Source: a virus
IMG/VR virus record: IMGVR_UViG_3300050821_005065
Coordinates: 1-64,000 of that record
Direction: 5' to 3' (one strand)
DNA: 64,000 nt
Both the position numbers and the translations under genes were made by a program. Below, one piece after another: positions 2,431 through 20,209 of the stretch. A model generated the notes under the pieces. It saw nothing but the letters and a program-made list of their open reading frames with translations, ran no database searches and was not told the DNA's origin. The first letter of the stretch is position 1. Each line of letters starts with the position of its first letter.

Positions 2431-2827
2431 TGAAATGGCAGACCCATGAGTGCTTTCTCGCTGCACCCCTCGCATTCTTGGCGAAAAAAGAAGCTGAGAG
2501 ACGAGCAACCAAAGAGTGTAGAGAAGCCCTACTAAAGCAAGCCTCAGCGTTGAAAGGCGCGTCGTGAAACGCTTCATGCGGTTATTCTGGCTGCTGCGCG
2601 GCATCTGGCGTAAACAGGTGAAGCGGTACGTCCGCTGGAAAGAGATCATGATCAAAGAAGGTATGCTCTTGCGTAAGTATTGGTCACCATATCGTTAGTT
2701 TCCCTCGCTGGTAGCCTTCCCGGCGAGGCGCTCCTGTTGTCTCGCCGGGAGCATAGGCCGCACGGTGGCCGTCATCCCACTGTGCGGCTGAATATCTGAT
2801 TTCCACAGCCTTTTCCATAAACCATTC

Positions 2828-2856
2828 TTGACATGAAATGGTTTTGCCTGTATCTC
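2828..2856 (+). promoter_or_regulatory. Sigma70-like promoter flanked by an inverted repeat
   Basis: TTGACA(2828-2833)-17 bp-TATCTC; AAACCATT(2819-2826)/AATGGTTT(2837-2844) inverted repeat straddles the -35 box. Confidence 0.55.
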
Positions 2857-2945
2857 TTAGACGTAACTCCCCAGCCTTGACTTTCCGTTTTGCCGTTAGG
2901 ACCGACGCGCGCCGGAAATAAAGCGCAGCCCTTAAAGCACTCACA

Positions 2946-3251
2946 ATGCGAATCCCTGTCTGGTCCCATGACGCCAACCCCAGCGTTGATGCTCCTCTCT
3001 GCCGCAAGAAACTCTCCTACTGCGAGGATATGATTCTGCGCGGCCTCCTCAAGCTCTTAAACGTGAGCGACATTCGGCAAGGCTGCATAGCGACTGGCAA
3101 GCTATATCTGCGTGCGGATGAGTATTCAGGTTCAATCAATCGTGCGGCTGGCTGGGGATTTGATTCAGCTTGGGGGATTCGGCAGTCTGGGCCGACTGGC
3201 CCGCTGGTGTGGCAACTGCGAACGCCGCGCACTAATGCTGCTACAGCATGA
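2946..3251 (+). CDS. Hypothetical protein
   Basis: First ORF after the promoter; ATGA overlap with the next ORF. Confidence 0.55.
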   Translation: MRIPVWSHDANPSVDAPLCRKKLSYCEDMILRGLLKLLNVSDIRQGCIATGKLYLRADEYSGSINRAAGWGFDSAWGIRQSGPTGPLVWQLRTPRTNAATA

Positions 3252-3478
3252 CTTCCCGAATCCCAAGCGCCCAAGCCGGGTATATGGAACTGGCTGGCGC
3301 AAAGAAAGATGGAGACTGCCGGAAAGTGGAAGTGGCGGGCGGCGTCAGCTTGGAATTAGGCTGCTGCAATGAATATCGGCCGCAGGCAAAAACTACACAG
3401 CGCTTTGATTGTGGGAACTGCGAATACCACAAGGCTTCCGAATCTCCTCGCGCCCCAAAACCTCCATCGAAGCTATGA
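3248..3478 (+). CDS. Small Cys-rich hypothetical protein ending in PRAPKPPSKL
   Basis: Coupled ORF; C...CC...CxxC pattern. Confidence 0.6.
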   Translation: MTSRIPSAQAGYMELAGAKKDGDCRKVEVAGGVSLELGCCNEYRPQAKTTQRFDCGNCEYHKASESPRAPKPPSKL

Positions 3479-3587
3479 CTGAGCGCGAACGCACTGCCTT
3501 GATCGTGTTTGGCTGCATCGCATGTGCAGCTTTCATTCTCGCCCTATTTGGCGTTTTTCAGTAACCATAATTCTGGAGGAATCAATT

Positions 3588-3737
3588 ATGAAGCAGTTTC
3601 TAGTCTACGACCGATTCACTCAGAGTCAATGGCGGCGCATGTCTTATGAGCAACAGCGTCTTGCCGTCAACCGCTGGCGTGCCGAGTATTCGAATAACCC
3701 GAAATACTGGCCTCAAACCGCAGGAGAATGCGCTTAA
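3588..3737 (+). CDS. Small hypothetical protein
   Basis: GGAGGA RBS before ATG at 3588. Confidence 0.5.
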   Translation: MKQFLVYDRFTQSQWRRMSYEQQRLAVNRWRAEYSNNPKYWPQTAGECA

Positions 3738-3741
3738 GGAT

Positions 3742-4149
3742 ATGAGACAGCCTCGTTACCGCGCCGCACGCCGCGCAGCCCTCAGAGTCCAAGGAATTAC
3801 TTCAGCCAACCAGCAGGAAGTGTGGCAAGTCACTCCGAGTCGAATTGGAATGCCAGCTTGGGCGAAAGAGCGGGCAGTGAAAGGGCTAATGGGCTTCTGG
3901 TTGATGGAGTGGGACGGGGCGCGAGTCGCGAATCTCGACAGATTGCGCGGCGGCTTTCCCATTGTGCTGAGGCAACCCTTCCGGCGCTGTGAAGTCTGCA
4001 ACCGCCCCATCATCGGAGGAGAAGCGATTGACCGGCGCAACCAAGTGGAGAGTTGTGTTGGCGGCAGAGAGCTTCCTTGCCGAGACCAGTGTTTAGCCGA
4101 GCGGGATCTGGGATTGTGGACGCGATTGAGCGAGGTCAAAGCAGCGTGA
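3742..4149 (+). CDS. Hypothetical protein with CxxC motifs
   Basis: TAAGGA RBS before ATG at 3742; GTGA overlap with the next gene. Confidence 0.55.
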   Translation: MRQPRYRAARRAALRVQGITSANQQEVWQVTPSRIGMPAWAKERAVKGLMGFWLMEWDGARVANLDRLRGGFPIVLRQPFRRCEVCNRPIIGGEAIDRRNQVESCVGGRELPCRDQCLAERDLGLWTRLSEVKAA

Positions 4150-7100
4150 GGCAGCGCAGTGATTTCATCTTCTTCCTGTTGGTGGTTGCCGTGGTGTTGT
4201 GCTTGGCCTCAGCCGCGCGCTGCCAATCGCCCTACGTAAACCTTACCGGCGTGGTCCAAGGGCCGAACGGCTTACCCGCAGCCAATCAAATAATTTCCCT
4301 CACTCCAACCCAGCAGTTCTTCGTCCCAGGCTCCGGAAGCAACTGCGATGGCTATACGTTGCAGATCACAGGGATTACTCTGTTCTGCGGGGATACGGTC
4401 AATTTCAATAACACCACGCCGGCGGCACCGGTGAATGGCTTAAATATTCAGTGGCAAACTCTGAACATTCCAGGCATTCCCGGAACCGACGAGGTAAGCG
4501 CAGCGATCGTAGGCGATGCGAATCCGAATCACTGCCTTAATGGTACGGGTGCATGGGCCGATTGCGGTGTAGGCGTCGTCGGCCCGATTACTCCCGGAGA
4601 TTGCGCGTACTGGGCCAGCACAACCGCCGTCGGAGACATTGGCGCTCCATGCGGCAGTGGCGGCGGCGGCGGCACACCCGGAACTCCGGTTGGATCGCTG
4701 CAAGGATACAATCCAACTCCTTCACCTCATTTTGGTGGAATCCCCAACACATCCGTAAACTTCACCACAGGGCAGACGCGGGTCGCCAACTTCAGCAATG
4801 TGCTTTACGCTCCCGATCCATCGGTTGTGACGGCAGGTGGATTCAACTGGCAGCAGAGTCCTTCGGGAACTTTGACGGCTGGAACTCCGGCGACCGTGAC
4901 TTTAACTCCGTGTCCGCTTGGGGTTAACGGACTTGATTACTGGAACACATTTCTCATTTCGGATTACACGACCGCAACGTTTACGAACGGCTCGGCGTCC
5001 ATTGCGGCAACTAATTCTTATTTTGCCGGAGAGATGGTTCGGTTTACTGGCAGCGTTCCAACGAACTTCAGCACAACTGCGATTTACTACGTTCTCTCGA
5101 CGGGCCTTTCGGGGAGCACGTTTCAACTGGCAGCGATCCCCGGCGGCACAGCAATTCTAGCCGGCGGAAACGGTTCCGCGACTGCGATTGACTGGGAAAC
5201 TCCGCAAATCACCTATGGTGGTACGTGTGCGTCCGGAGCATCTTCCGGAACGGTGCTGTTCACGCCAATCTATTCGCACGCGGCGGGCTATAGCATCGGG
5301 ACGGGTACGGCGGGCATTTACGAAACACTTGCGGCGAATGCCCAACCACAAACCGGCGGCTCGACCTTTTCGACCAACTATCGCATCGTGCTGGGGCCGG
5401 CGGGCAATCCGAACAACAACGGCCAGACCGGACCAACTGTATACCAAATCTTCGGCACGCTGAGAGCTGGGTTTTATAATTTGACGATTGACGCCTACGG
5501 CAGCGTCCTTCAGTGCTGGACGCGCAATTACTGCATCGACTATAACCGCCTGTCTGGGTCGCAGAACAAGTTCAACATCCTCGGGCCGACCATGGTCTCG
5601 ATGCAGAATTTGAACGGTTGGCCCATTGCCTCGACACAGTGCTCGGGAGGCGTGGTGACAATCAACACCACCGTGCCTCATGCGATTCAAATTGGCGATA
5701 TCACCGACGTACTGAGAACAGATAACGCCTTCTACTGGGGCGGATCGGCCACTTGGGGGCTCAATTACGACGGCCACACGGTGACCTCGGTAACCTCGAC
5801 TTCCTACAGCTACCCGATTAATGGTTCGTGTCCTGCCGGAACTTCACTAGCCAATACTCCTGGTTATACCAATGTCATCAACGCCCCGATCATGTCCACC
5901 CAGAACGGCATGCACATCGCAGACTTTCAGGGATTCTTAGCCGGAGCCGCCTACATCGGGACGCAAGGACATTGGAACGAAGGCCCTGTAGGGCTTAACG
6001 ATCAGGATTTTACGGTGGACAGATCGACCGATATCTTGTTGGTCTCTGGGCAGGTAACGCCATCGACTTGTTCGACCACCTATCCGTATTGTGGGTTCAA
6101 GATGTATTTCCCCGGCCCCGGCTCCCGAAACTCTTCCATTCCCCATCTTTACAATCTGGATTTCAACGTAGCCTGTACCGGAAACGGCATTGGCAATTTT
6201 GCCGGAAACACGATGGATGTCACTGGAGCCAATCTTCAGAGCGTGAGCCAGGTTGCGATTGTCTCTGGCAATCCGCTCAGTGGCTTTGGGCCTACCACGC
6301 TGTTGAATGTTTACGCCGAAGCGGGCGGCTGCACCAATCCGGATGTAGGTCTGATCGCGGATGCCGGGATTATCAACTACGGCACTCCAATCACGGTCAT
6401 TGGCGGAGAAGGTCCGGGCGGCGGATTAATCACACTAGCGACCGGAGGCAGCACGGTTTATGCCTACTATATTCAGGCAGTAGATTCGGTTGCGGGAGTA
6501 AGCGCTCCATTACTCTTTGGCGAAGCAGCTCCTTCAGGCAGCACCGTGAATGTGCAATTCCCGAGAATGCAACCCCTTCCCGGCAACACGATCACTTACA
6601 ACATAATCCGCACGACCGATCTTCATAACGCGCCAACTACATCAGCTTGTACGGGAGGAAGCACCAGCGCGTGCGGCTCCGTAACCACAGGAATGGCACA
6701 GTGCTCCGGCTTGTGGTGCTCATTCACCGATTCTGTCGCATCAAACACATCTGCGATCACTGTGACATCGCCCGCACCCTTTTTACCTTCTGCTACTTTC
6801 TGGCCTGCAAGTTGGGTGATGGAGGGGAATGGAGTAGCCTATGTAGTCGGTATTACGAACCAAGGTTGTGCGGAGGCGACGCTCAGTTTCGGTGGCCTCT
6901 CTAGCCCGGCCTGCTTTAGCGCGAACGATCCTAATGCCGGGAGCCTTACTTCATGGGGATCATCATTACAAGGGGGGCGAACCGCGTTAATTTTGGATGA
7001 CATCACCCAAATCACCCCTCCGGTTCGAGGAAGATTGAATTTCAATTACACAACCACGACGTACAAATATCCGCAGAGCGTCATCACCTTGGCAGATGCT

Positions 7101-8102
7101 TCGCCAGATGTAACCTTAGCTAATATTGGGCATCGGCCTTCGATGTCTGCCTCCGACACATGGATAGGCTTCGATTGTCTGAATTACGTTACCCTTCAGT
7201 GTTTGGGATTGGGCAGCCCGGTGTCAATTTCCAGCTACATCGGCGCTGTGCCAAACGCGGCTGGCGTTGGGGGATCATCCAATTGGACGCATCAACTTAC
7301 CGCATCTCTCGAAACCAGCCGAGTACCCAACCTCATTACGCAGGGATTGACCGTGCTGGGATCGTGTACCGGCTTCCTGTTCTGCGGGCCGTTCTCTCCC
7401 ACGAATCAGGTATCTGACACTTTTGTGCGGGCCAATAGCGGCACTTTAGGAGTGAACTGGACTTGCAGTTCAAACGGCACGTGGGGAATTACCAGCAATA
7501 CAGCCACGCCGCTTACCCTCACTTCGGGAACGGTCCTAAACTGCGCTTACACGGCGACCTCTTTCACCAATGATCAAGTATCGCAGGTTACATTTTCCGC
7601 ACCATCGACGGATGGCATCGGGGCGACCTGTCGAACTGCATCAGGCGCTTCGACCGGATACACGCTGCTTTTAGATGGCTTAGGCGATTCGCGCATCTTG
7701 AAAAGTGTAGCTGGCGTAGCTAGCAACCTCGCTACCGGCGGGCCCGCTTTTGCTATCGGCGATGTTGCAACTATCGCTTGCGTTGGAACGACGATCACGG
7801 CTTACAAAAATGGTACGCAAATTCTCTCGGCTACGGACAGCGCTATTACTTCCGGCTCTCCCGGCATGACCTACTTCAACAATCCTGCCGCAGGAAGCGG
7901 AGCACTCTCAAACTTCATCGGCGGAAACGCTTCATGGAATAGCGTGCAGGGCCTGTCAATCCAGAGCAATCCGATTCCAGGGCAGGAAGGCAGCCCGACT
8001 CTTAATACCGCGGTGTGCTGGAAGACGACTGGGGTAACGCCGACCTTGGGATATTGCTCGACCGCTCTTAGCGGCAGTCCGCCAACTTGCACATGCAACT
8101 AA
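4146..8102 (+). CDS. Large tail-fibre/tailspike-like protein with predicted signal peptide
   Basis: GTG start; MRQRSDFIFFLLVVAVVLCLASAARC|QSP signal; VNLTGVVQGPNGLPAANQIISL resembles fibre N-terminal anchors; beta-rich T/S/G composition; Cys-rich C-terminus. Confidence 0.7.
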   Translation: MRQRSDFIFFLLVVAVVLCLASAARCQSPYVNLTGVVQGPNGLPAANQIISLTPTQQFFVPGSGSNCDGYTLQITGITLFCGDTVNFNNTTPAAPVNGLNIQWQTLNIPGIPGTDEVSAAIVGDANPNHCLNGTGAWADCGVGVVGPITPGDCAYWASTTAVGDIGAPCGSGGGGGTPGTPVGSLQGYNPTPSPHFGGIPNTSVNFTTGQTRVANFSNVLYAPDPSVVTAGGFNWQQSPSGTLTAGTPATVTLTPCPLGVNGLDYWNTFLISDYTTATFTNGSASIAATNSYFAGEMVRFTGSVPTNFSTTAIYYVLSTGLSGSTFQLAAIPGGTAILAGGNGSATAIDWETPQITYGGTCASGASSGTVLFTPIYSHAAGYSIGTGTAGIYETLAANAQPQTGGSTFSTNYRIVLGPAGNPNNNGQTGPTVYQIFGTLRAGFYNLTIDAYGSVLQCWTRNYCIDYNRLSGSQNKFNILGPTMVSMQNLNGWPIASTQCSGGVVTINTTVPHAIQIGDITDVLRTDNAFYWGGSATWGLNYDGHTVTSVTSTSYSYPINGSCPAGTSLANTPGYTNVINAPIMSTQNGMHIADFQGFLAGAAYIGTQGHWNEGPVGLNDQDFTVDRSTDILLVSGQVTPSTCSTTYPYCGFKMYFPGPGSRNSSIPHLYNLDFNVACTGNGIGNFAGNTMDVTGANLQSVSQVAIVSGNPLSGFGPTTLLNVYAEAGGCTNPDVGLIADAGIINYGTPITVIGGEGPGGGLITLATGGSTVYAYYIQAVDSVAGVSAPLLFGEAAPSGSTVNVQFPRMQPLPGNTITYNIIRTTDLHNAPTTSACTGGSTSACGSVTTGMAQCSGLWCSFTDSVASNTSAITVTSPAPFLPSATFWPASWVMEGNGVAYVVGITNQGCAEATLSFGGLSSPACFSANDPNAGSLTSWGSSLQGGRTALILDDITQITPPVRGRLNFNYTTTTYKYPQSVITLADASPDVTLANIGHRPSMSASDTWIGFDCLNYVTLQCLGLGSPVSISSYIGAVPNAAGVGGSSNWTHQLTASLETSRVPNLITQGLTVLGSCTGFLFCGPFSPTNQVSDTFVRANSGTLGVNWTCSSNGTWGITSNTATPLTLTSGTVLNCAYTATSFTNDQVSQVTFSAPSTDGIGATCRTASGASTGYTLLLDGLGDSRILKSVAGVASNLATGGPAFAIGDVATIACVGTTITAYKNGTQILSATDSAITSGSPGMTYFNNPAAGSGALSNFIGGNASWNSVQGLSIQSNPIPGQEGSPTLNTAVCWKTTGVTPTLGYCSTALSGSPPTCTCN

Positions 8103-8104
8103 AA

Positions 8105-9028
8105 ATGACACTCTTTTCTATGGTCGATCGACGGCTGAGCAGCACCCTTGGAGTGCTGGCTGTTTTTCTCGGCATCCTCACCTCCTGCGAACCCATCCCG
8201 GTCTACGCTCAGTTCGTTGTGGCGCCCACCACCGCAGAGTGTGCGACCTCAATTGATGGATCTGTCGTGGGAACCATTAATCCTCTGTCCCCACCAATTC
8301 TGACCACGAGCTTCACCGGCAGCTTATCTGCGGGAAATTACTTCGTCGAAGAGGCTTGGCTCGATTCGTTCGGACATACCACATTGGTCAGTCCGGAAAC
8401 TCCAGTTCAACTCACCGGCACCGGAGAATTGATTGAGAATATCCCCTCAAGTGGGATTCCGGCCACGGTCGTCACACGAAAGATTTATATCGGCACAACT
8501 TCTGGGTCAGAGACTCTTCAGGGCTCCGCCTCTGGCTCTACTGCTTATACTCAAAGCGTGCCGCTGGTCACGGGAGCGGCAGTTCCGACACTGAATAACA
8601 CAGTTTGCCAGGTAGTCGCGAACGATGCCGGCTGGCCCACGGGAACCGGTTATCTTGTCTCCCTTACTACTCCCTCGGGTGAAACGGCACCAGGGTATCC
8701 TTTGCAAGCCCAATTCCTAGGGCCGGGAAACAACATCAACTTAGGACAAGGTTTCCCGCAGTACAACGGGACAGTGCTGTATCCGATTCCAATCATGGCG
8801 CGACCCTACAATCATGGGCCGCAAAGCATCTCGGGAAATCTAACCTTGGGGCCCTACGCTTTGTCGGCCAACACCATGACGCTTGGCACGAGCGTAACTA
8901 ATCCCTCTGGAGGAACCAATGTTGTCTATCGCTGCGTTACCGCGGGGTCTACGCTGCCCATTGGATCGTTAACGATCAACGCCGCGGCTTGTGGCAGCAC
9001 ACAGGATACAGGTTTACGAGTTCCGTAA
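8105..9028 (+). CDS. Fibre/Ig-like protein with predicted signal peptide
   Basis: Hydrophobic N-terminus (LGVLAVFLGILTSC...VYA|QF); GSLSAGNYFV...IYIGTTSGSETLQ Ig/Fn3-like module of the type repeated in the nozzle protein. Confidence 0.65.
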   Translation: MTLFSMVDRRLSSTLGVLAVFLGILTSCEPIPVYAQFVVAPTTAECATSIDGSVVGTINPLSPPILTTSFTGSLSAGNYFVEEAWLDSFGHTTLVSPETPVQLTGTGELIENIPSSGIPATVVTRKIYIGTTSGSETLQGSASGSTAYTQSVPLVTGAAVPTLNNTVCQVVANDAGWPTGTGYLVSLTTPSGETAPGYPLQAQFLGPGNNINLGQGFPQYNGTVLYPIPIMARPYNHGPQSISGNLTLGPYALSANTMTLGTSVTNPSGGTNVVYRCVTAGSTLPIGSLTINAAACGSTQDTGLRVP

Positions 9029-9072
9029 CTCCCCGCAATGCCCAGCATCAACCCTTTAACCTTGGAGGAAGC

Positions 9073-9495
9073 ATGAAATACTCCGACTCAGTAACTTTAG
9101 TCCAACGCCAGTCCGATGGCTCAATCACGCGCACGAATGCGCTGGTGCTGGCCTCGGCAATCCAACCCAAAAACGCCAGCATCCACACAGGTCTCAAGAA
9201 TCAGCATGGCCTGTTACCCGAAGGCGAGTATCTTGACCTCGCATTCTTAACCCCGATGCCAGACGGGCAAGTGTTGAAGACCACGAGCGCGGAAAACTAT
9301 ACGCGACCGGCACATTTAGTCGCACCATGGAAGGACGGCGCGGTGATCGGATGGGAACCGAAAGTCGCTCCACCTTCCCCGGACGCCGCGAAGCTTCGCA
9401 AGTTTCTGTTCGCGAATTTCAAGAGCGAAACCGGCAACGAAACTCCCGAAGACTGCGCCATCCGCCTGCTGTCCGCCACTCTCAAAAAGAAGTAG
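9073..9495 (+). CDS. Hypothetical protein
   Basis: GGAGGA RBS, ATG at 9073. Confidence 0.7.
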   Translation: MKYSDSVTLVQRQSDGSITRTNALVLASAIQPKNASIHTGLKNQHGLLPEGEYLDLAFLTPMPDGQVLKTTSAENYTRPAHLVAPWKDGAVIGWEPKVAPPSPDAAKLRKFLFANFKSETGNETPEDCAIRLLSATLKKK

Positions 9496-9500
9496 AACCT

Positions 9501-10529
9501 ATGTCGCGTATCCTCTTTATCGTTAAATTCAGGGAAGACTCTGCGGGGCGCTGTGCCTACGATGGAACACCAGCCTGTTATGGCGGACTCTATCACTCGG
9601 CGCTCTTTGTTGTGCAAATGCTGCGCGCGGCTCATGTCGATGCCAAACTCGTGCAGGTCTGCGACAACAATGACATCGACCGCGAAGTAGACCGCTACAA
9701 GCCCGACATCGTGATTATCGAAGGCTTGTGGGTCATTCCCGAGAAATTCCTGATCCTGGCGCAACTTCATCCTCGGGTGCGCTGGGTCGTAAGGATTCAC
9801 AGCGAGATACCCTTCCTGGCCTATGAAGGAATTGCAATTCAATGGGTCGATGGATATGTGCGGCAACTACAAGTCTATGTTGCGGCAAATTCGACTTACG
9901 CAACCCGCGATTTACAGGTTGTCGTGGGGTCGCGTTACGCCAGTAAGATTCTGTGCCTCCCGAACTTCTACCCGCTATTGAATCAGGTCGCCAAGCGGCA
10001 GAACGCTTTCCTGGATATCGGTTGCTTCGGCGCGCTGCGGCCGCTCAAAAACCAGTTATTACAAGGGATAGCCGCAATTGAGTTTGCCGAGCGCGAAAAA
10101 CGCTCCCTACGCTTCCACATCAATGAACGATGCGAGCAGATGGGCGATTCTGTACTGAAAAACCTGCGCGCATTGTTTGACGCTCCAGGCCGGGAACTCG
10201 TCGAACATAAATGGGAGACGCGGGAGCAATTCCTCGAGACTCTCAGTTGTACCGATATCGGAATGCAAGTCTCGTTTTCTGAGACCTTCGACATCACGGC
10301 TGCCGACACCGTATCGCTCGGAATTCCCTTGGTGGCCTCGTCCGAAATCGTCTGGGCCTCGCCGCACGCGCAAGCCTCCGTCACCAATGTAGCCTCCATT
10401 GTGCAAAAGTTGCGTGACGTAACTTCCTCGGTCTTCGGTTGGTGGATTCGCAAAGATAGCCTCAAGAGGCTTCGTACTTATTGCGATCACAGCCGCGCTA
10501 CATGGCTTCACTTCGCAGAACAATTTTAG
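9501..10529 (+). CDS. Glycosyltransferase (GT-B fold, GT4-like)
   Basis: KPDIVIIEG; IGCFGALRPLKNQ; DIGMQVSFSETFDITAADTVSLGIPLVAS donor-binding motif. Confidence 0.8.
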   Translation: MSRILFIVKFREDSAGRCAYDGTPACYGGLYHSALFVVQMLRAAHVDAKLVQVCDNNDIDREVDRYKPDIVIIEGLWVIPEKFLILAQLHPRVRWVVRIHSEIPFLAYEGIAIQWVDGYVRQLQVYVAANSTYATRDLQVVVGSRYASKILCLPNFYPLLNQVAKRQNAFLDIGCFGALRPLKNQLLQGIAAIEFAEREKRSLRFHINERCEQMGDSVLKNLRALFDAPGRELVEHKWETREQFLETLSCTDIGMQVSFSETFDITAADTVSLGIPLVASSEIVWASPHAQASVTNVASIVQKLRDVTSSVFGWWIRKDSLKRLRTYCDHSRATWLHFAEQF

Positions 10530-10548
10530 TTTCCAAAGGAGAAACCAC

Positions 10549-11520
10549 ATGAAACGTACTTTGACCTCAACTCTAATCGCCCTTGCGCTGGTTGTCGCTT
10601 GCATTTGTATTGCGGCCCCGGCGTTCGCCCAAAACTACCCGCCCACCTGGGTCTTCGCCCGCGATTACAATTACTCGCCGGTCATCGGCCAGCAAGCCAA
10701 CACCTATACGTTCAATGGGGGAAGTTGCAACTATACTCCCACCGGGGGAAGCGTGAACGGCTTGGCGAATCCCATCTTCGATTTCTCAGGGGTCATCGTT
10801 TCAACTCCGGTGTACTTTCCGGTGTTCATCAACGATGCGACTCCGACGAATTCCGAGATTGTGACGCCCTCGGCAACGTCGAATACTCAGACAGTGTGCG
10901 GGTTCACGGCTTCGCCGGCGAACTCTCATACCACCTTCCAGCTTCAGTCGGGAACTGCCGGCTTGCAGGAAGCCGTCGCTTACCAGATCAACTCAGCGCC
11001 AAGCTCCGTGGTGATGCTCGATAAGTCTTGGTACACCTTGCTGACCGGGCTCGGTTCAACGCCTCCAAGTGCCGCGGCAGTCATCAACGCTTTGACCGGC
11101 AGCGCCAACGTGGAGATCGTCGATACCACCACGGCGCCGTGGGTGTCTTACTGCTGGAATGGGACGAACTACACCCCGTGTGCCAGCAATCAGACCGTGC
11201 CTGCAGTAGCGGCTGGTGCGGGCGCCGGAACCGGCCCAACTATTACCGTAGTTGGCACTGGCGTATCCGGGATTGTGACTCTGACCACGGGCACCACGCC
11301 GACGGCCTCGGCTACCATTTTTACCTTGACCTGGCCCGCGATCGCATCGGGCGGCTTCCAGTATGCTCCGAGTTGCACCATCTCAACCATCGGGACGCGG
11401 GCTTATACCGGAACCAACGCGAGCGTAGCTGGACCTCCGGCAGTCGATACCTACACTGCGACTTCCACGGCTCTCACGGCTTCAGTGAGCGGCTATAAGT
11501 GGTCGTATACCTGCCGATAA
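10549..11520 (+). CDS. Fibre-like protein with predicted signal peptide
   Basis: MKRTLTSTLIALALVVACICIAAPAFA|QNY; C-terminal GAGAGTGPT...GIVTLTTGT...YAPSC...KWSYTC resembles fibre tip domains. Confidence 0.7.
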   Translation: MKRTLTSTLIALALVVACICIAAPAFAQNYPPTWVFARDYNYSPVIGQQANTYTFNGGSCNYTPTGGSVNGLANPIFDFSGVIVSTPVYFPVFINDATPTNSEIVTPSATSNTQTVCGFTASPANSHTTFQLQSGTAGLQEAVAYQINSAPSSVVMLDKSWYTLLTGLGSTPPSAAAVINALTGSANVEIVDTTTAPWVSYCWNGTNYTPCASNQTVPAVAAGAGAGTGPTITVVGTGVSGIVTLTTGTTPTASATIFTLTWPAIASGGFQYAPSCTISTIGTRAYTGTNASVAGPPAVDTYTATSTALTASVSGYKWSYTCR

Positions 11521-11559
11521 GCTGATCGTCGAATCTGGCGAAAGGAATAGGTCTTAGCC

Positions 11560-13536
11560 ATGCGAATGCGTCTCTGTGCGTTTCTCCTCCTTGGTGCCGT
11601 GTTCGCTGCTCCCTTATGGGGGCAGCGGGCCGGACCGCAAAACATTACCGCAGCATCAGGTGCAGGTTCGTGTGCTTCGGTTCAAATCTCTTCCGGCCAA
11701 GCCTCGACCGTTGGGATTCAGATCGTCGGAACTTGGTCAGCCACGCTTCAGCCCCAGGTTAAAATTGCCGCGCAAACCGCAGTCAACACCACGGTCACGC
11801 CGGCGGGCTCGTCATCCTCGCAAGGGACGATCACCGCGAATGGGATCTATACCGCAGTGGTTGCGGGCATGGATTTCTTTCAAGTCTGTGCGACGGCCTA
11901 CACCTCGGGAACCGCCACTGTCTATTTCAATCTCTCGAATGGCGTAGCGATCAATCAGTTAGGCGGAGGAGCTTCCGGCGCGGTTGCGATCACAGTCAAC
12001 GGGGGAGGAGTCTTAACCTCTCCTGTAAATTTGCAGAACGGCACGAACACCACCGCATCAAATTCCGGATCGAACGTCCAATACAACGTTCCCACTGCTA
12101 CAAGTTCTGTTCTGGGAGTCGTCGAGCCGGACGGAACAACCATCGCCAACACCGCGGGTGCCATTAAGGTGGCGATCCCGAACTGTATCAGCACAGTCGC
12201 CAATCTGGGATTGTGTCCATCCCTGCAAGCCGGGATTCAGGCTGAAGTGACCGACGGCGCTTCAGTCACGGACTGCACCGTCGGAGGAGGCTCAACCTTG
12301 GTCTCCTGCGCTTACAACGGCGCATCGTGGGCGGCAACTTTTCCCGGTGGGTTATCCGTCGCAGGCAGTCAGTTCGCGGTGCAAACCAACAACGGCTCAG
12401 GCGGCCTTGCAGGAATCAATTCTCCAACAACCAACGGTTACTACGGTTGCGGATTCAATGTGACAGCAAGCGTAGCAGTTCTTTTTGGCTGCACGCTTCA
12501 GGGCGTAGCCATCGACACCAGCAATCCGGCAACTTTACTGTATAACGACCGCGCGGCCTATGTTGATTGGACTAGCGGCACGGGTTTGGCGCTCCCAGCA
12601 ATCAGCGGCCAGTTCGGCTCCAACTTCCCCTTCGTTCTAGAAAATAACGCAGGCTCTACTTTGACCATTACCCCGAATGCTGGAGCAAGCAATCTTATCG
12701 ACGGCAGCGCCACGGGAACCTTGCTGCCGGGCTTCGCGGCCTTTGTCTATAGCGATGGAGTTACGAACTGGGATTCGATCAAGTTCCCGACCTTTGGAGC
12801 GTTCCCCGCCTGCACTAATATCCTTCAGTTCAGCACGACCACAGGATTCAACTGTCCAGCCGCGCCGCCGGTTAATTTGGGCGTGACCAACGTCAAGCCA
12901 GCCGCGGATAGCACCTCGACCTTTAGCGTCACCGGGCAAACGTCAGGTACGAACGACTTTCAAGTTGATACGACAAACCATCGCACATGTATAGGTTGTG
13001 CTGGTGCGGCCCCAGCGGCCGGTTTGGATGTAGGTGGAGGAAAGTTTGAGGTCAACAACACCACTGGAGCTTGCCCCGTAATTAACGGATTCACGACAGT
13101 AGCTCCTGGCTGCACTCCGTTGATGAGCAACACGGCCAGTGGAACCTTGAATAATAATCTAGGTGCCACAACCTTAACGGCCTCGATCGCTGCGACTCAC
13201 TGGTATGTCGCCGAGTTCGAAGTTGTGCAAGTGGCTGCCGGAACAAGCTGTGCAACCGCAACATCTTTTGTGGTCAACATCATCGTCCAAGATCCGAATG
13301 CAGGCGGGGCGAGCACGGTGCCATTGATTCCGATCGGCACGACCAGTTCGACGATCAGCATCAGCGCCAGCACAGGGAATGGCGCGGCAGGAGCGCAACT
13401 GGCACAGCTTCACTACGCTTGGGCGCAGAAGGCGAGTCAGACGCCGCAGTACAGCGTTACCGGATATTCGGCAGGAACGGCTTGTTCTCCGGCTCCAACG
13501 TTCGCAATCAATCCCATCGTGATGATGACCAAATGA
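11560..13536 (+). CDS. Tail-fibre-like protein with predicted signal peptide
   Basis: MRMRLCAFLLLGAVFAAPLWG|QR; fibre-type motifs PTATSSVLGVVEPDGTTI, TVANLGLC...VTDG...GGGS...NGASW and AVQTNNGSGGLAG. Confidence 0.7.
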   Translation: MRMRLCAFLLLGAVFAAPLWGQRAGPQNITAASGAGSCASVQISSGQASTVGIQIVGTWSATLQPQVKIAAQTAVNTTVTPAGSSSSQGTITANGIYTAVVAGMDFFQVCATAYTSGTATVYFNLSNGVAINQLGGGASGAVAITVNGGGVLTSPVNLQNGTNTTASNSGSNVQYNVPTATSSVLGVVEPDGTTIANTAGAIKVAIPNCISTVANLGLCPSLQAGIQAEVTDGASVTDCTVGGGSTLVSCAYNGASWAATFPGGLSVAGSQFAVQTNNGSGGLAGINSPTTNGYYGCGFNVTASVAVLFGCTLQGVAIDTSNPATLLYNDRAAYVDWTSGTGLALPAISGQFGSNFPFVLENNAGSTLTITPNAGASNLIDGSATGTLLPGFAAFVYSDGVTNWDSIKFPTFGAFPACTNILQFSTTTGFNCPAAPPVNLGVTNVKPAADSTSTFSVTGQTSGTNDFQVDTTNHRTCIGCAGAAPAAGLDVGGGKFEVNNTTGACPVINGFTTVAPGCTPLMSNTASGTLNNNLGATTLTASIAATHWYVAEFEVVQVAAGTSCATATSFVVNIIVQDPNAGGASTVPLIPIGTTSSTISISASTGNGAAGAQLAQLHYAWAQKASQTPQYSVTGYSAGTACSPAPTFAINPIVMMTK

Positions 13537-16500
13537 AGCGCCTCCTTCTCATCTTCGCGCTGCTGTGCGGCTCGGCCTTCGGGACGACCTATTTCGCGCC
13601 CACTTCCGCCGGATCGAACAACGGTACGGACTGCGCGGACGCTTACGCGATTGGGGACGTGGCGCACGGTATCAACGTCTCGGGAAATTGGACGGCGGGG
13701 AATACCATACACGTCTGTTCGGGAACATATACCGGATCGGCAGGATCGACGCTCATTACAGCGGCGGGCAGCGGATCGAGCGGCAATCCGATCAATCTCT
13801 ATCTCGATCCCGGAGCGGTTCTGACCGCTCCCTACTGGGCGGCAGGAAATGGGGCAATCAACATCTCCGGCCAAAGTTGGATTACCGTGGATGGATGGGT
13901 GGGTCATTCCTGTGGTTTCGTTAATGCCGTAGATGTGACTTGCGGCGGAGCGATAATTGAAAACTCCGCGAATGGCTCGAAGCTTGCCAACCAACAGAAT
14001 TCCCGTGGAGTATTCGCCGATCCCTGCCAGAACTGCATCGTCCGTGGGATTAATTTTCAGAATCTCTACGTTCACACCCTGCCACAAGCGGTGACTTCAA
14101 CCACCATCGTCGGCTCCGGGAACGGCGCTACGATTACGATCAACTGCACGGCATCCTGTCTCTTTCCGGTTGGAGCTGTCGTCAGCTTAATTCAGACCTC
14201 GAACGCGAGCATCAACTCGCACAATGGCTGCGGCCAGCCCATCACGATTACCAACGTCAGTCCTTCGACGCAGGTTACAGGTACGATCAACTCGACTTTC
14301 TGCGGTCTGACTCCGTCCGGCAGTTCCACGGGCGGAGCGGTAGCGGAAGTCGGTATCTCCAACTCTCAAGTAAACGCGGTTTACTTCTCCGGCCAGAACA
14401 CACAGGTTTGCAATAACTGGATTTCCAATTCTGCTTGGGCCATAATTGCGCACGCCGAAACGAATGATACCGGGATTCAAATTTGCCATAATCATATTGA
14501 CTCCAGCGACCACACCGTCGCCTACTCACCCAACAACGAGACCACGGCTTATACAGCCTATATCTACGGCAACCACTTCACGAACTTCATGAACTGGGAT
14601 TCTGGTTGCGGGCCGGAGAATGGAGCCTGTTCAACGTGGGATACGGGATCGAATAACTATCACCACGATGGTATCCACTTCTTCGATGGCGGAGTCAGCG
14701 TCTCCTACACGATGTTCATTTATAACAACGTGTGTGACGGAACTATTGGAGTGAACGCAACCGGCTGCTATTTCGCGGAAGGCACGACCTCCTCGAATCT
14801 GGCCTCAACAACTTACTATTTCAACAATGTAGCTGTGAGCCAGCCGACCAACACCAGCGGCCAAGGGCACACGATGTTCGTCGGCGGATGCCTCTCCGGT
14901 GGATCGACGCGGAATTGCTTCGTTTACAACAATACGGTGTTATCGGCGGCAAACGCCTCCGATGTAGCATACGACACCTCCGGCACGGACGCGCTGTTCA
15001 AGAATAACGCGGCACAATCCAGCGGCTCATACCTGCAATGGAATAACTGGACGATCACAACGCCCTCGACCGACATCGACTACAACGCCTATGCCGATAA
15101 TGGGCAGTGCGGCGGTAACGGTTGCTGGAATTGGGGCGCTCAAGGCATCGACGCCTCTAGCCTGGCAGCATGGAAGTCTGCGTGTGTCTGCGATAGCCAC
15201 GGAGTATACGCGGCTTCACTCGGAATCAATTCCAGTACGTACGTTCCGACGAGTACAGGATCGTTAGTCTACCATGCCGGAGTCAATCTAACCTCGGTTT
15301 GCAGCGGCCAACCCAGTCCCGGTTTAGGCGATTTGTGCTCGGATGCGGCTGGAGTCGCAAGGCCGAACTCGGCATGGGATGTGGGAGCATTCCAGTTCGG
15401 AGTAACTGTCACGGTCGCCACTCCAACGCTCTCTCTGGCAGCGGGAAGTTATGCCAACGCGCAAACGACTATCTGTGCAACGAGCACTCCGGGAGCATCC
15501 TGCGTCTACACGGCAGATGGCACCACACCAACGGTCTCCGGCACAACCTGCACTGTCACAAACGGCAACCTTGCACCGAATAACTACGTGCTCCCGGTAA
15601 GTCAGTCAGTGACGATTGCAGTTATTGGTTGCCTCTCTGGAGATACGGCAAGTTCGACCGTCTCGGCAGCCTATACCATCACCTATTCCTCGACGATAGC
15701 GGCCAGCAACTTCGGTTTACAATGTGGCTTCAGCAATGGAGCGTGCAAGAATCCCTCTCCTCCGCCGCTGGTCCTGTGGCCGACCTCAATTGCGACACCC
15801 TCAGTGGTTCGCATGTTGAGTTCCAACACCGATTGGGCAACGATGCAGCCGAACTCCAGCGGGATTGTTTACACCGACCTCGACGGCTACCTCGACGCAC
15901 TGGCGGCGACGGCGCTTGTAAGCGGGAATCCAGCTGCAGCCGACGAGGTATTTATCTCGGTGCCATGCTATCTAGCAGCCGCTCCGACGCCATGCCCCAC
16001 GGCCAGCCAGCCGGCGCACGGAACCAATAGTCCGCCCGCCGATCTGGTCGCTTCCGGATCTCCATCGTTCAACGCCTTCGTGACAGCGTTCGTTAACCAC
16101 TGCTCGGTTGCGGGAAATTGCGTCAAAAATCTCATCAAGTATTACGAAATGTGGAACGAACCCAACCTGCCTTACTCATGGGCGGGGACGGAACTTCAGT
16201 TGGAGCAGATGATTGCTCCTGCGGCACAGATCATCGCGGCCAACGTTCCGAACGCCGTGATCATGACGCCCTCTTTTAGTTCAGGAGGAAGCGGTTACAC
16301 CACCTACGCAAGCAACTGGCTAACGTTTGAAAACACGGTTGGACCTTTTTCGAGCATCGTCTTGCTGCACGACTACCTTGGGACTTCCATCCCAGAATCC
16401 CGCGGCCCGCCTGGTGCCTTTGCCACAGCCGTCCACGGTGTCGCCGGCTGGTCGAACGCGCTATTAGGTAACGACGAAACGAACTGGGCCGCCAGCAATA

Positions 16501-16973
16501 ATTTCAAGTGCGTGGGTTATAGCACCGCCGACTGCATCGGGCAAATCGTGCGATGGCAACTCATTCAAGCGAGCAAGGGTTACGCAGCCATCTGGTGGTT
16601 CGTTTGGAATGGAACCATCGGCAACGGGCCCGTGGGCTACGCCAGCGCTTATTACTGGGCAGAGCAATATTTGATTGGCGGGCACTTCACCGGGGCGGCC
16701 AGTGGCACAGGGACGCCGCCAGTCTGGACGGCTCCGTTCGTCGAAGGCAATGGCAAGACGGCGCTGTGGGTGTGGACGACGAGTGAAAGTGGAACGACCT
16801 ATACGGTGCCGAGCAACTACACGGATTACCGCGACATTTCGGGCGGATCGACTCCGATAACAGCGGGAAACAGTATCGCAATCAGCGTGCAGCCCATCAT
16901 GTTGGAACAAGGTACAAGCGTACTGCCGCCAGCAACGGTGAATGCGGCGATCGCGCTGTTAGCACAAAACTAA
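13533..16973 (+). CDS. Secreted-type multidomain protein: beta-helix, chitobiase C-terminal-like linker and clan GH-A (GH39-like) glycoside hydrolase
   Basis: MKRLLLIFALLCGSAFG| signal; parallel beta-helix repeats (HHDGIHFF, IYNN); DAAGVARP...WDVGAFQF; VATPTLS...YTADGTTPT; YYEMWNEPN acid/base motif and DETNW nucleophile-like motif. Confidence 0.75.
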   Translation: MKRLLLIFALLCGSAFGTTYFAPTSAGSNNGTDCADAYAIGDVAHGINVSGNWTAGNTIHVCSGTYTGSAGSTLITAAGSGSSGNPINLYLDPGAVLTAPYWAAGNGAINISGQSWITVDGWVGHSCGFVNAVDVTCGGAIIENSANGSKLANQQNSRGVFADPCQNCIVRGINFQNLYVHTLPQAVTSTTIVGSGNGATITINCTASCLFPVGAVVSLIQTSNASINSHNGCGQPITITNVSPSTQVTGTINSTFCGLTPSGSSTGGAVAEVGISNSQVNAVYFSGQNTQVCNNWISNSAWAIIAHAETNDTGIQICHNHIDSSDHTVAYSPNNETTAYTAYIYGNHFTNFMNWDSGCGPENGACSTWDTGSNNYHHDGIHFFDGGVSVSYTMFIYNNVCDGTIGVNATGCYFAEGTTSSNLASTTYYFNNVAVSQPTNTSGQGHTMFVGGCLSGGSTRNCFVYNNTVLSAANASDVAYDTSGTDALFKNNAAQSSGSYLQWNNWTITTPSTDIDYNAYADNGQCGGNGCWNWGAQGIDASSLAAWKSACVCDSHGVYAASLGINSSTYVPTSTGSLVYHAGVNLTSVCSGQPSPGLGDLCSDAAGVARPNSAWDVGAFQFGVTVTVATPTLSLAAGSYANAQTTICATSTPGASCVYTADGTTPTVSGTTCTVTNGNLAPNNYVLPVSQSVTIAVIGCLSGDTASSTVSAAYTITYSSTIAASNFGLQCGFSNGACKNPSPPPLVLWPTSIATPSVVRMLSSNTDWATMQPNSSGIVYTDLDGYLDALAATALVSGNPAAADEVFISVPCYLAAAPTPCPTASQPAHGTNSPPADLVASGSPSFNAFVTAFVNHCSVAGNCVKNLIKYYEMWNEPNLPYSWAGTELQLEQMIAPAAQIIAANVPNAVIMTPSFSSGGSGYTTYASNWLTFENTVGPFSSIVLLHDYLGTSIPESRGPPGAFATAVHGVAGWSNALLGNDETNWAASNNFKCVGYSTADCIGQIVRWQLIQASKGYAAIWWFVWNGTIGNGPVGYASAYYWAEQYLIGGHFTGAASGTGTPPVWTAPFVEGNGKTALWVWTTSESGTTYTVPSNYTDYRDISGGSTPITAGNSIAISVQPIMLEQGTSVLPPATVNAAIALLAQN

Positions 16974-16996
16974 AAAGAGAAGAGAGGAATCACAAA

Positions 16997-17377
16997 ATGA
17001 AACGAATCCTGCTGGCAGTTCTGGTTCTCATGCTGGGGGTAGTCGCACAAGCCCAGGCATCATCGCCTTGCGGAGTTGTACCGACTCCGGGCGCTCCGCA
17101 TGTGTGCTTTAGCTGGTCCGCGTCCCCGACGCAAGGCGTGGCCTATAACGTCTACCGGGCGACGACTTCCGGTGGAGAGAATTACGCGACTCCGCTCAAC
17201 GCGGTGCCGCTGACCACGCTATACTTTTATGACACGACTGTGGTTGACGGAACAAAATACTTCTACACGGTGACCGCCGAGACTGGAGGTGCGCAAAGCT
17301 TGCCTTCTCCAGAGGCAAGCTCAATAGTCCCAGTGCCTCCTTCTGCCCCGACATCCCCCGCAGCTATCATTGATTAA
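16997..17377 (+). CDS. Single fibronectin type III domain protein with signal peptide
   Basis: MKRILLAVLVLMLGVVAQAQA|; WSAS...YNVYRATTSGG...YDTTV...YFYTVTA. Confidence 0.8.
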   Translation: MKRILLAVLVLMLGVVAQAQASSPCGVVPTPGAPHVCFSWSASPTQGVAYNVYRATTSGGENYATPLNAVPLTTLYFYDTTVVDGTKYFYTVTAETGGAQSLPSPEASSIVPVPPSAPTSPAAIID

Positions 17378-17422
17378 GTGTCAAACAACCTCGTATCCCA
17401 AAATGTAAAACAGGAGGAAACC

Positions 17423-17695
17423 ATGAACGCATTCTTGACCTATGTAAAGGCGAACTGGAAGACGAACTTGGCGGCAGTGGCCGCATTCGCTTATTCGGTG
17501 CCTCAGTTCGTCACCGCCATTACCGCATGGCAGGCCGGACAACAGCCAAACTGGCACGCTGCGGTTATCAGCATCATTGTGGCTGCTGGACTTGCTGCTG
17601 CCAAGGACGGCACGAATCATTCCACGATGGCCCAAGTGAAAGCCTCGACTGCTGCTGTAGAGGAATCTAAGGCTACGGCGACGGGTACTCCCTAA
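17423..17695 (+). CDS. Putative holin
   Basis: CAGGAGG RBS; two hydrophobic segments, NWKT...GLAAAKD pattern; near the endolysin. Confidence 0.6.
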   Translation: MNAFLTYVKANWKTNLAAVAAFAYSVPQFVTAITAWQAGQQPNWHAAVISIIVAAGLAAAKDGTNHSTMAQVKASTAAVEESKATATGTP

Positions 17696-17703
17696 CCAAT
17701 GAA

Positions 17704-17844
17704 ATGCAGCCGAAAGAACTAACGATCCTCGCGAGGAAGATTCGCGAACTGGAGCGGAACATCGAGATCAATCCGAAAGGCGGTCTCGTGCTCGCAATGA
17801 AAGCTAGAATCGCGCAGTTGAAGAAGCAGTTGGAGGGAAAATGA
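17704..17844 (+). CDS. Small basic coiled-coil protein
   Basis: MQPKELTILARKIRELERN...QLEGK; ATGA overlap with the next gene. Confidence 0.5.
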   Translation: MQPKELTILARKIRELERNIEINPKGGLVLAMKARIAQLKKQLEGK

Positions 17845-18650
17845 ACACGCTATTCGACATTCTCAAGAAGCCTGTCCTGTTCCACTTGGTTCTCTACCAA
17901 GGCAAGAATGGTATCGCAACTTCTCCTACGGCCTACCTGTCGAACGATCCCGACGTAATTGGTGACCAGCTTTCCGCGATGCAGAATCTTGGTGGTCCCG
18001 GCTGCGGCGTCATCGGCCTAACCTACGGGCCAACCGTCAGTTCTTTCATCAACTCCGCTGCGGAAGAAGTGTGCGCCCAATGCGCCGAGAGAGAGATGCC
18101 GTTTGCGCTCTGTTACGATCCTTGGGTTGTGAAGAATCCCGATGGCTCGATGCCGACCGTTGCTATCGCTACCCAGAAGATGATTGCCGCGCTGGAAAAT
18201 CCAATCACGCAGGCCATGATGGACTCGAAGACCTACATCTCCAGCATTAATGGGATCAGCGGCAAATTGGTGCTCGACTTCGGAACCACCGCGACACCAT
18301 CGGCGGTGACTGCTGCCATGAAGGGAACGACCTACTGGCAGAACAGCGTAGATTACGCTTGGCCGCTCATTGCCGACAATAACGGACCCGCGCCTGTCAA
18401 CAACACGACTGCGAAGTTGCCGTGCGTTTGCCGCGCTTTTAATGACGGCACTGGCCCAAATCGCAATGTGTCAATCTGGACTCCGACCAAGCCCGCGCGG
18501 ATCATTCCGGCGAACGCTGGAAGTTATTTTTGGTCGCTGGCGAACGCGATGAATCCTGCCGCCGAGTACGCGCAGGTAGTCACTTGGAATGATGTTCTGG
18601 AGGGAACTGACATCGAGTCGTTCGCCGCAATACTGTACGGCAAGATTTAA
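17841..18650 (+). CDS. Glycoside hydrolase, GH99/GH71-like
   Basis: YLSNDPDVIGDQL near the N-terminus; C-terminal VVTWNDVLEGTDIE motif. Confidence 0.6.
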   Translation: MNTLFDILKKPVLFHLVLYQGKNGIATSPTAYLSNDPDVIGDQLSAMQNLGGPGCGVIGLTYGPTVSSFINSAAEEVCAQCAEREMPFALCYDPWVVKNPDGSMPTVAIATQKMIAALENPITQAMMDSKTYISSINGISGKLVLDFGTTATPSAVTAAMKGTTYWQNSVDYAWPLIADNNGPAPVNNTTAKLPCVCRAFNDGTGPNRNVSIWTPTKPARIIPANAGSYFWSLANAMNPAAEYAQVVTWNDVLEGTDIESFAAILYGKI

Positions 18651-18695
18651 CCTTGCGCTCGGAAACTCCAACCTGGTAACAAAGAAAGCGGTCTC

Positions 18696-18923
18696 ATGGA
18701 ATGGTTACTGGCGGCCGAGCAGCACATCCAATTCGGCGGATTCGTGATCATCGCGACCTGGCTGGCAAAGAAGTATCGCGTGGATCTGGAAATTAAAAGG
18801 CGCTTGAATACTTTGTGGTATGACCGCTGCGCTACAAAACAGGAAGTCTATCAGCCGGTGGAGAATGGGACGCCTCCGATTCTTCCCCCAAGGCCAGTAT
18901 ATTCGAGGCGGCATTTGGACTAA
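18696..18923 (+). CDS. Small membrane protein in the lysis region
   Basis: N-terminal hydrophobic stretch; coupled to the next ORF. Confidence 0.5.
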   Translation: MEWLLAAEQHIQFGGFVIIATWLAKKYRVDLEIKRRLNTLWYDRCATKQEVYQPVENGTPPILPPRPVYSRRHLD

Positions 18924-19701: not shown

Positions 19702-19784
19702 GTATCAAGTACGGGACACATGTTCTCTTACAAGAGCAGGCGCACATCCTCGGATATTGGATGAAGACTTAAGCAGGAGACCTT

Positions 19785-20207: not shown

Positions 20208-20209
20208 CG

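Follow-up and report, generated by a model that had tools for sequence, protein, structure and literature searches.

The window considered here comprises 64,000 nucleotides, bases 1-64000 of the single 72,157-bp contig of IMG/VR record IMGVR_UViG_3300050821_005065, and its plus-strand block at 4146-17377 encodes six proteins, SP1-SP6, each of which begins with a Sec-type signal peptide (leader). Export by Sec and cleavage by signal peptidase I are predicted with high confidence from the architecture of the leaders, their conservation and the cysteine pattern, and the fibre- and spike-like proteins of this phage probably do not fold in the cytoplasm, in which the rest of the particle is built. 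Whether the six genes encode peripheral host-recognition and polysaccharide-degrading proteins, that is fibres, spikes and small partners, which are made as Sec pre-proteins and dock at lysis, is an evenly balanced question. What is observed here comprises the leaders and how they are conserved, the amino-acid composition of the proteins and the pattern of their cysteines, the shuffling of their modules and the order of the genes. The ends of the contig overlap by ~98 bp, so that it is a complete circular phage genome. The six genes are given below, with a slash at the best cut site.

4146-8102, plus strand: SP1, 1318 aa, GTG start; leader residues 1-26 (nt 4146-4223), cut ARC/Q
8105-9028, plus strand: SP2, 307 aa; leader residues 1-35 (nt 8105-8209), cut VYA/Q
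10549-11520, plus strand: SP3, 323 aa; leader residues 1-27 (nt 10549-10629), cut AFA/Q
11560-13536, plus strand: SP4, 658 aa; leader residues 1-21 (nt 11560-11622), cut LWG/Q
13533-16973, plus strand: SP5, 1146 aa; leader residues 1-17 (nt 13533-13583), cut AFG/T
16997-17377, plus strand: SP6, 126 aa; leader residues 1-19 (nt 16997-17053), cut AQA/Q

The six open reading frames (ORFs) are real and tightly packed, with stops that abut or overlap the following starts. All six leaders have a basic n-region, a hydrophobic core (h-region) of 10-15 residues and a small-x-small site, and that of SP2 also contains a lipobox-like LTSC. The first residue after the cut (+1) is Gln in five proteins, one more than the four of the original prediction, and Thr in SP5. 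A leader rule was defined by an uncharged 10-residue window with a mean Kyte-Doolittle value of at least 2.3 that starts no later than residue 14, net positive charge ahead of this window and a small-residue -3/-1 site behind it. Run over the 72-kb genome with every ORF and every start codon, the rule picks out 11 distinct ORFs, namely SP1-SP6, three minus-strand early genes and two shadow ORFs of 65-74 aa, and in this way the leaders that had been proposed for the six proteins are all recovered by a genome-wide scan. Among ORFs of at least 200 aa, 7/45 are flagged in this genome, against 0/17 in T7, gp17 gene included, and 2/35 in the first 50 kb of Sinorhizobium phage phiM6, where both are unannotated and overlap real genes. 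Inspection of the C-termini of the six proteins by eye shows no sorting signal.

The leaders are kept in related phages. SP3 has 167 database relatives at an expectation value (E) <= 0.001, and 107 of the 119 listed non-self sequences pass the leader rule, while most of the others look alike with a longer n-region. An alignment of 30 sequences of the SP3 family shows an h-region whose sequence is not conserved, followed by Ala27-Gln28, which are at least 90% conserved. Leaders are present in all nine relatives of the N-terminal half of SP5, which continue with a conserved 'IYFA..SAGSNNGTSC' start, and, by eye, in 15 of 18 relatives of SP4, one of the three exceptions being a gene call whose start falls within the leader. 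An alignment of the portal-like protein gave 49 related IMG/VR loci, 15 of which extend for 6 kb or more beyond the portal on its upstream side. In these 15 loci, 24 of the 36 low-charge ORFs of at least 200 aa upstream of the portal pass the rule; the 12 that fail are nine ORFs cut by the start of the locus, two with long n-regions ('...GRVRAQ') and one frameshift fragment, so every complete low-charge ORF there has a leader. These comparisons indicate that the leaders are conserved in hundreds of homologues while their own sequence drifts. Gln after an allowed site is found in 89 of 114 low-charge leader-bearing ORFs in loci from metagenome-assembled genomes; as to a preference for Gln at +1 throughout the host (a 'Q-rule'), the locus flanks hold only 27 other leader-bearing ORFs, which is too few.

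The mature proteins SP1-SP6 contain 34, 4, 6, 16, 36 and 2 cysteines. All counts are even, which would occur by chance about once in 64 cases given the chosen cut sites, and neighbouring cysteines are often 2-16 residues apart, as the original prediction of many closely paired cysteines had it. In the 30-sequence alignment of the SP3 family, C60, C117, C276 and C322 are invariant. Charged residues make up 5-8% of the six proteins versus at least 9.3% of the 45 other tabulated proteins, and Ser and Thr together 21-26%. The cysteine frequency of the six is not unusual for the genome and is high only next to that of head and ejection proteins, among which several are Cys-free. Export followed by oxidative folding, as had been proposed, is strongly supported by sequence comparison, through the conserved leaders, the even counts, the invariant cysteines and the Cys-poor signal-less fibres of phage Tunturi_3, which are described below.

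Behind the leaders, the proteins are built of modules that recur in other arrangements. SP1 has a conserved 35-aa post-leader module (residues 30-64) and then a large low-charge body, whose residues 1086-1235 match phrog_2804 'virion structural protein' (E 8e-10). A 507-aa protein of the related locus L001 consists of a leader, the 35-aa module and a body; its module is 60% identical to SP1 residues 30-64 (E 3e-8) and its body 52% identical to SP2 residues 38-268 (E 5e-73), so that the window splits module and body between SP1 and SP2, each with a leader of its own. The body of SP2 is also homologous to proteins of 470-583 aa that precede N-domain genes in prophages. SP4 is a fibre-like mosaic, in which the N-module (8-135) and the mid-module (264-438) recur with different partners, and protein P0138 places the mid-module behind a signal-less fibre-type N-terminus. 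SP3 is formed by a conserved N-domain (~28-215) with two invariant cysteines and a C-terminal sandwich with two more. In prophages, this N-domain ('...AQA', the cut, then 'QNIEGQIIASQYGE...') is found at the head of proteins of ~300-2000 aa, of which one prophage often carries two or three, and the C-terminal domains behind it vary and may be present or absent; one of these proteins has a pectate-lyase-like domain right behind the N-domain (PF12708, E 1.2e-10). The leader rule is passed by 65 of the 103 prophage N-domain ORF pieces, and many of the failures are fragments. Across 59 loci, the identity of the N-domain tracks that of the portal (~54% with 65%, 33-39% with 30%; r = 0.64). Such shuffling is the behaviour of receptor-binding proteins, with the restriction that a new N-terminus has to stay exportable.

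When prokaryotes are scanned with one genome for each species, the SP3-type N-domain is found in 66 loci, of which 63 are labelled Acidobacteriaceae, Terracidiphilus, Terriglobales or Acidobacteria and three Verrucomicrobia or Opitutaceae. A portal-like homologue is present in 38 of 67 loci (the 66 and L001), all 38 belonging to the 66. Among the loci listed, this homologue comes ~3 kb after the N-domain gene, with homologues of the next head genes behind it, and these loci are therefore considered prophages. The phage of the window is a soil phage and its host, judging from these relatives, one of the Acidobacteriaceae. The three loci with Verrucomicrobia or Opitutaceae labels (L007, L026 and L052) may reflect mis-binning or a broader host range.

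SP5 and SP6 complete the set. SP5 has a CHB_HEX_C domain at 636-708 (PF13290, E 2.2e-6), a repeat-rich N-terminal region and a C-terminal part with 'MWNEPN'. From the sequence, with no family match, the repeats are presumably a beta-helix and the C-terminal part a glycoside hydrolase, and in this respect SP5 is a protein resembling depolymerases. SP6 is small and sandwich-like and matches phrog_33719 (E 2.4e-5).

Several more specific resemblances that had been proposed are visible by eye only or are not recovered by searches. Fibre-type short motifs belong to the first kind. The 'TV..L...VTD...GGG...NG..W' module is present once, in SP4, and so is the string 'ATSSVLGVVEPDGTTI', which had been described as a repeat; with a single copy it is not one. 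In Pfam, none of the six proteins matches an Stf, tail-fibre N-terminal or fibre-repeat family at E <= 0.01, which leaves the suggested Stf-like N-terminal anchor without a counterpart, and SP1 residues 27-275 match no family even at E <= 0.05. An immunoglobulin (Ig)-like module shared by SP2 and the nozzle-like protein was not recovered either, as BLASTP of SP2 against the protein encoded at 30802-34296 gives nothing at E <= 0.01. Among the six proteins themselves, BLASTP detects no similarity at E <= 0.01, and rows at E < 5 are at chance level. Sequence searches of the PDB with the nozzle-like protein, SP5, SP1 and the 279-aa protein encoded at 34979-35818 yield at most one row of E 0.09, and Atlas look-ups give only sub-threshold leads (0.88 for SP4, 0.75 for SP1).

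Structural models were obtained for SP2 and SP3. The AlphaFold model of SP2 is poor, with a mean predicted local distance difference test score (pLDDT) of 49, and only residues 57-163, a beta-sandwich, are confident. The fold of this region gives borderline matches to a SPO1 capsid chain (Z 8.9, root-mean-square deviation 2.5, 102 aligned) and the crAss001 tail muzzle (Z 8.5, root-mean-square deviation 5.7, 116 aligned). The monomer model of SP3 (pLDDT 87) shows generic folds, a small barrel and a sandwich of the Ig or carbohydrate-binding-module type, and its best matches in BFVD are uncharacterised Caudovirales proteins. For SP3 alone, a trimer of three copies of residues 28-323 was modelled with the family alignment in three runs and with three controls. 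Two of the three runs scored high (0.00, 0.76 and 0.78), with a median interface score (ipSAE) of 0.76 versus 0.01 for the best control, agreement in at least 58% of contacts and a partner pLDDT of at least 79. This mark is reached by 20/30 proteins solved as pairs and by 1/23 solved as single chains, counts which are only rough for SP3, as it was modelled with a custom alignment and in three copies. The model supports a homotrimer of SP3.

The genes around and within the leader-bearing block are as follows.

691-2430, plus strand: GroEL-type chaperonin (Cpn60_TCP1, E 4.8e-46; phrog_5725, E 2.5e-118)
3646-4149, plus strand: upstream neighbour of SP1, a Cys-rich, highly charged protein of 167 aa, with a stop that overlaps the GTG start of SP1
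4146-17377, plus strand: leader-bearing block, SP1-SP6
9073-9495, plus strand: leaderless protein of 140 aa inside the cluster, no Pfam or PHROG family matched
9501-10529, plus strand: leaderless cytoplasmic protein of 342 aa inside the cluster, weakly GT4-like (PF20706, E 0.018, under the curated cut-off)
17378-17695, plus strand: holin-like protein of 105 aa with two hydrophobic segments, beginning one base past the end of SP6
19273-19701, plus strand: endolysin, Peptidase_M15 (PF08291, E 1.3e-15; phrog_894, E 1.1e-28)
20713, plus strand: start of a portal-like gene, 858 aa
29569, plus strand: start of a weak SU10-type adaptor
30802-34296, plus strand: nozzle-like gene, 1164 aa
34979-35818, after the nozzle-like gene: signal-less Ser/Thr-rich protein, 279 aa
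38598-45431, plus strand: internal or ejection-type protein of 2277 aa, one of several large internal proteins
46624-48252, plus strand: large terminase
68-71.6 kb of the contig, plus strand: helicase and DNA methylase genes

The protein encoded at 17378-17695 is, from its two hydrophobic segments, presumably the holin, and the lysis cassette with the endolysin gene separates the leader-bearing cluster from the portal-like gene. The 167-aa protein ahead of SP1 matches no Pfam or PHROG family; its homologues precede fibre-like genes in L001, L002 and L003, and it may act in regulation or in assembly. The GroEL-type gene lies shortly upstream of the leader-bearing block, and Cellulophaga phage phi18:3, described below, carries GroES genes near its equivalent block. 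In phage Tunturi_4, an annotated glycosyltransferase (L070 1567-2565) adjoins the terminase, near the leader-bearing fibre genes of that phage on the circular map. A scan of 2400-21000 for promoters and terminators stays at or under the shuffle expectation, and Pfam searches with ten early and other proteins find no thiol oxidoreductase, signal peptidase or cyclase.

Other proteins of the window show features of their own. The flagged minus-strand early genes are at 51406-52068, 52065-52421 and 55520-56242, the latter two with lipoboxes (MIGC and LSGC), and L001 has similar genes for a lipoprotein (2583-3035) and a secreted protein (3032-3676); these early leader-bearing proteins may serve in superinfection exclusion or in modification of the envelope. 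The 2277-aa protein has a RelA_SpoT-like region at 459-562 (E 3.4e-6), a match to a phosphoheptose-isomerase-like PHROG at 740-825 and a strong match to phrog_21 at 988-1316, and contains no cysteine. On the minus strand, a 362-aa protein (48456-49544) has a RyR domain marginally over the Pfam cut-off (27.5 versus 27.4 bits), and a 222-aa protein (54495-55163) with 19 cysteines (8.6%) matches no family.

In cultured phages, a near-identity DNA search with the cluster finds nothing, the collection contains no similar genome save for distant terminase matches below 35% identity, and tblastn with SP3 and the portal-like protein gives no match in it, the Tunturi_1 and Tunturi_4 records included. 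Phages of Tunturiibacter are described in passages of PMC11924767 as the podoviruses Tunturi 1-3, the siphovirus Tunturi 4 and the myovirus Tunturi 5, and the main text of that paper contains none of the terms 'signal peptide', 'tail spike' and 'mass spectrometry'. Tunturi_1 (PP887698), a cultured phage of Acidobacteriaceae, resembles the window in that gp12 (1190 aa), gp13 (675 aa), the 'tail spike protein' gp14 (919 aa), gp16 (149 aa) and the 'virion structural protein' gp17 (1184 aa) bear leaders. Of these, gp12, gp14 and gp17 pass the leader rule and gp13 and gp16 are similar by eye. The five proteins have 3.7-7.8% charged residues and 2-32 cysteines and are encoded directly ahead of the lysis genes, and gp17 combines Beta_helix and CHB_HEX_C, like SP5. 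In Tunturi_4 (PP885687), the 'tail protein' gp113 and the 'virion structural protein' gp114 have leaders as well, and the tape measure and distal tail proteins have none; low charge and many cysteines accompany the leaders of Tunturi_4, as they do in Tunturi_1. The annotated start (30433) of the Tunturi_4 'tail fiber protein' gp111 (L071 30076-33171) is probably too far downstream, and an in-frame ATG at 30076 gives this protein a leader and the first mature residues of gp113 (QTAAVK).

Phage phi18:3 (NC_021794) has a comparable set in a different phylum. Its adjacent gp085 (547 aa, GYS/Q), gp086 (785 aa, VSA/Q) and 'tail protein' gp087 (559 aa, LNA/Q) have leaders with MK-rich n-regions and hydrophobic cores, followed by Gln, and are annotated in the record as 'based on experimental MS/MS proteomics analysis' of virions, that is by tandem mass spectrometry (MS/MS). 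The gene order is that of the window, with gp085-087, small membrane proteins and the endolysin, and then GroES, terminase and portal. Unlike the phage of the window, phi18:3 infects Bacteroidota, and its proteins have 15-20% charged residues and no detectable sequence relationship to SP1-SP6. By analogy, phi18:3 is the best indication that leader-bearing proteins at this position are virion components.

Podovirus tailspikes and fibres, such as P22 gp9, T7 gp17 and Klebsiella-phage depolymerases, combine a conserved N-terminal particle-binding module with exchangeable enzymatic C-termini. The proteins of the window share with them the late expression, the modelled trimer, the lineage-conserved N-module, the shuffled C-termini and sugar-acting domains of pectate-lyase-like, beta-helix and CHB_HEX_C type. 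They differ from them in that every member has a Sec-type leader and many paired cysteines, and in that the genes stand ahead of the lysis cassette and portal and not behind the ejection genes. In filamentous phages, the coat proteins g3p and g8p have signal peptides and the virion is assembled outside the cytoplasm; such phages, however, are non-tailed and are extruded without lysis, whereas the tailed particle of the window is built in the cytoplasm. Host Sec is also used by spanin lipoproteins, by the Sec-exported and signal-arrest-release (SAR) endolysins described in passages of PMC6116005, and by five leader-bearing 'Q-rule' proteins with Gln at +1 in Porphyromonas gingivalis prophages, which parts of PMC10367356 read as envelope modifiers, but these are small proteins of lysis or envelope modification and not large modular fibres. 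The paper on the Q-rule makes no mention of Acidobacteria in its main text. Among carbohydrate-active enzymes of soil prophages, SignalP leaders are present in 5% (3261/64,678), as given in a part of PMC13507307. In the literature covered, from which subscription journals are mostly missing, no tailed phage is described as having fibres or spikes with leaders. Tailspikes and Sec leaders are each familiar, and the combination and the assembly route that it implies are new.

In the proposed route, each protein would cross the inner membrane unfolded and be cut by signal peptidase I, which exposes Gln at +1 in all of them but SP5, and this Gln may cyclise to pyroglutamate. Folding, disulfide formation and trimerisation would proceed in the periplasm while the cytoplasm builds heads and tails. 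The products of the holin-like and endolysin genes would then open the envelope, and the conserved post-leader modules would dock the trimers onto the finished tails, with surplus protein serving as a free enzyme on the host exopolysaccharide. Cleavage, disulfides, pyroglutamate and docking are steps that we infer, and for the last of them, the docking of periplasm-matured trimers on cytoplasm-built tails after the holin has fired, with the surplus as free enzyme, the chances appear equal on both sides. Addition of receptor-binding proteins as a final step is familiar, as P22 tailspikes and T4 fibres are added last to finished particles. Joining of the virion at lysis, which is plausible, gains indirect support from the post-leader anchor modules, the SP3 trimer model, the position directly ahead of the lysis genes and the phi18:3 proteins detected by mass spectrometry. 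That no fibre gene stands behind the ejection genes favours the reading of the six as the fibre and spike genes. Display on lysogens, the other possibility raised in the original prediction, is unlikely because the genes lie in a late, tightly packed plus-strand block.

Several points weigh against docking onto the virion. The receptor might in truth be bound by the 279-aa protein or by the nozzle-like protein of 1164 aa, and the SP3 trimer and the common N-domain would also fit secreted enzymes. Fold searches with SP3 give no clear tailspike anchor, the best Foldseek match in the PDB having E 0.035 and the best VIA match Z 6.8. Tunturi_3 (L123 7573-23095, first 50 kb) has seven leaderless fibre-like proteins with 0-7 cysteines (at most 0.85%), which shows that fibres without leaders can be made by phages of this host genus, too; the leader is therefore a trait of certain phage lineages that the host does not impose, and cysteine richness goes with it. 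The phi18:3 proteins gp085-087 contain 0, 1 and 3 cysteines, so that disulfides are not a universal reason for export, and their detection by mass spectrometry could reflect co-purifying envelope material.

The best-surviving alternative, less probable than virion docking but a serious possibility, is that the proteins are exported and never bound to the virion. They would be periplasmic or secreted depolymerases and adhesins that strip or remodel exopolysaccharide or receptors late in infection, easing release, sparing the progeny from sticking to debris or exposing neighbouring cells, while a signal-less tail protein binds the receptor. The cluster stands directly ahead of the lysis genes and not behind the ejection genes, as would suit such enzymes, and SP5 and the prophage paralogues have sugar-acting domains. 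The original prediction found no signal-less fibre gene after the ejection genes, and indeed nothing fibre-like follows them, but the 279-aa protein at 34979-35818 could be a signal-less needle or fibre. Exported phage proteins have precedents in the Sec-exported and SAR endolysins (in passages of PMC6116005) and the leader-bearing P. gingivalis proteins read as envelope modifiers (in parts of PMC10367356). Free enzymes, however, need no lineage-conserved N-module under shuffled C-termini, SP4 has a module in common with the fibre-type protein P0138, the phi18:3 proteins at the equivalent position were found in virions, and the small non-enzymatic SP2, SP3 and SP6 are hard to explain as depolymerases.

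It is improbable that the N-termini remain uncleaved as membrane tethers or as cytoplasmic handles for assembly or trimerisation, or are removed by a phage protease, with assembly in the cytoplasm as usual. Some phage capsid proteins are indeed mis-scored as leader-bearing, as noted for P. gingivalis phages in parts of PMC10367356. Against this reading, the n-h-c architecture with small -3/-1 residues and a +1 Gln is conserved while the h-region drifts, the even and invariant cysteines, set against the Cys-poor signal-less fibres, fit an oxidising compartment, and the logic of a prohead-type protease does not apply to fibres. An annotation artefact with true starts downstream of the hydrophobic segments is very improbable: the public call for SP5 starts at TTG 13482, 17 codons upstream (1163 aa), and the annotation of Tunturi_4 gp111 places its start downstream, but with the ATG at 13533, which shares the bases ATGA with the stop before it, SP5 has a short n-region of canonical type, the other starts likewise abut or overlap preceding stops, family conservation starts right behind the cut site, SP3 has no Met before residue 156, and just one of the 119 listed SP3 relatives (P0063) starts directly after the leader.

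Assembly of tailed phages is, in the textbook view, wholly cytoplasmic. If the proteins of host recognition do mature in the periplasm, the final step of assembly would be coupled to lysis, and fibres could use disulfides and other modifications available only in the envelope. Production of recombinant depolymerases and prediction of host range would have to allow for the leader, and annotation that counts a signal peptide against a virion role would mislabel key host-range genes in abundant soil phages. Cultured systems in which the question is directly testable are at hand in the Tunturi phages, grown on Tunturiibacter, and in phages of Cellulophaga. A two-compartment route of this kind, undescribed so far, is about as likely as not, and it would be common in phages of Acidobacteriota and Bacteroidota.

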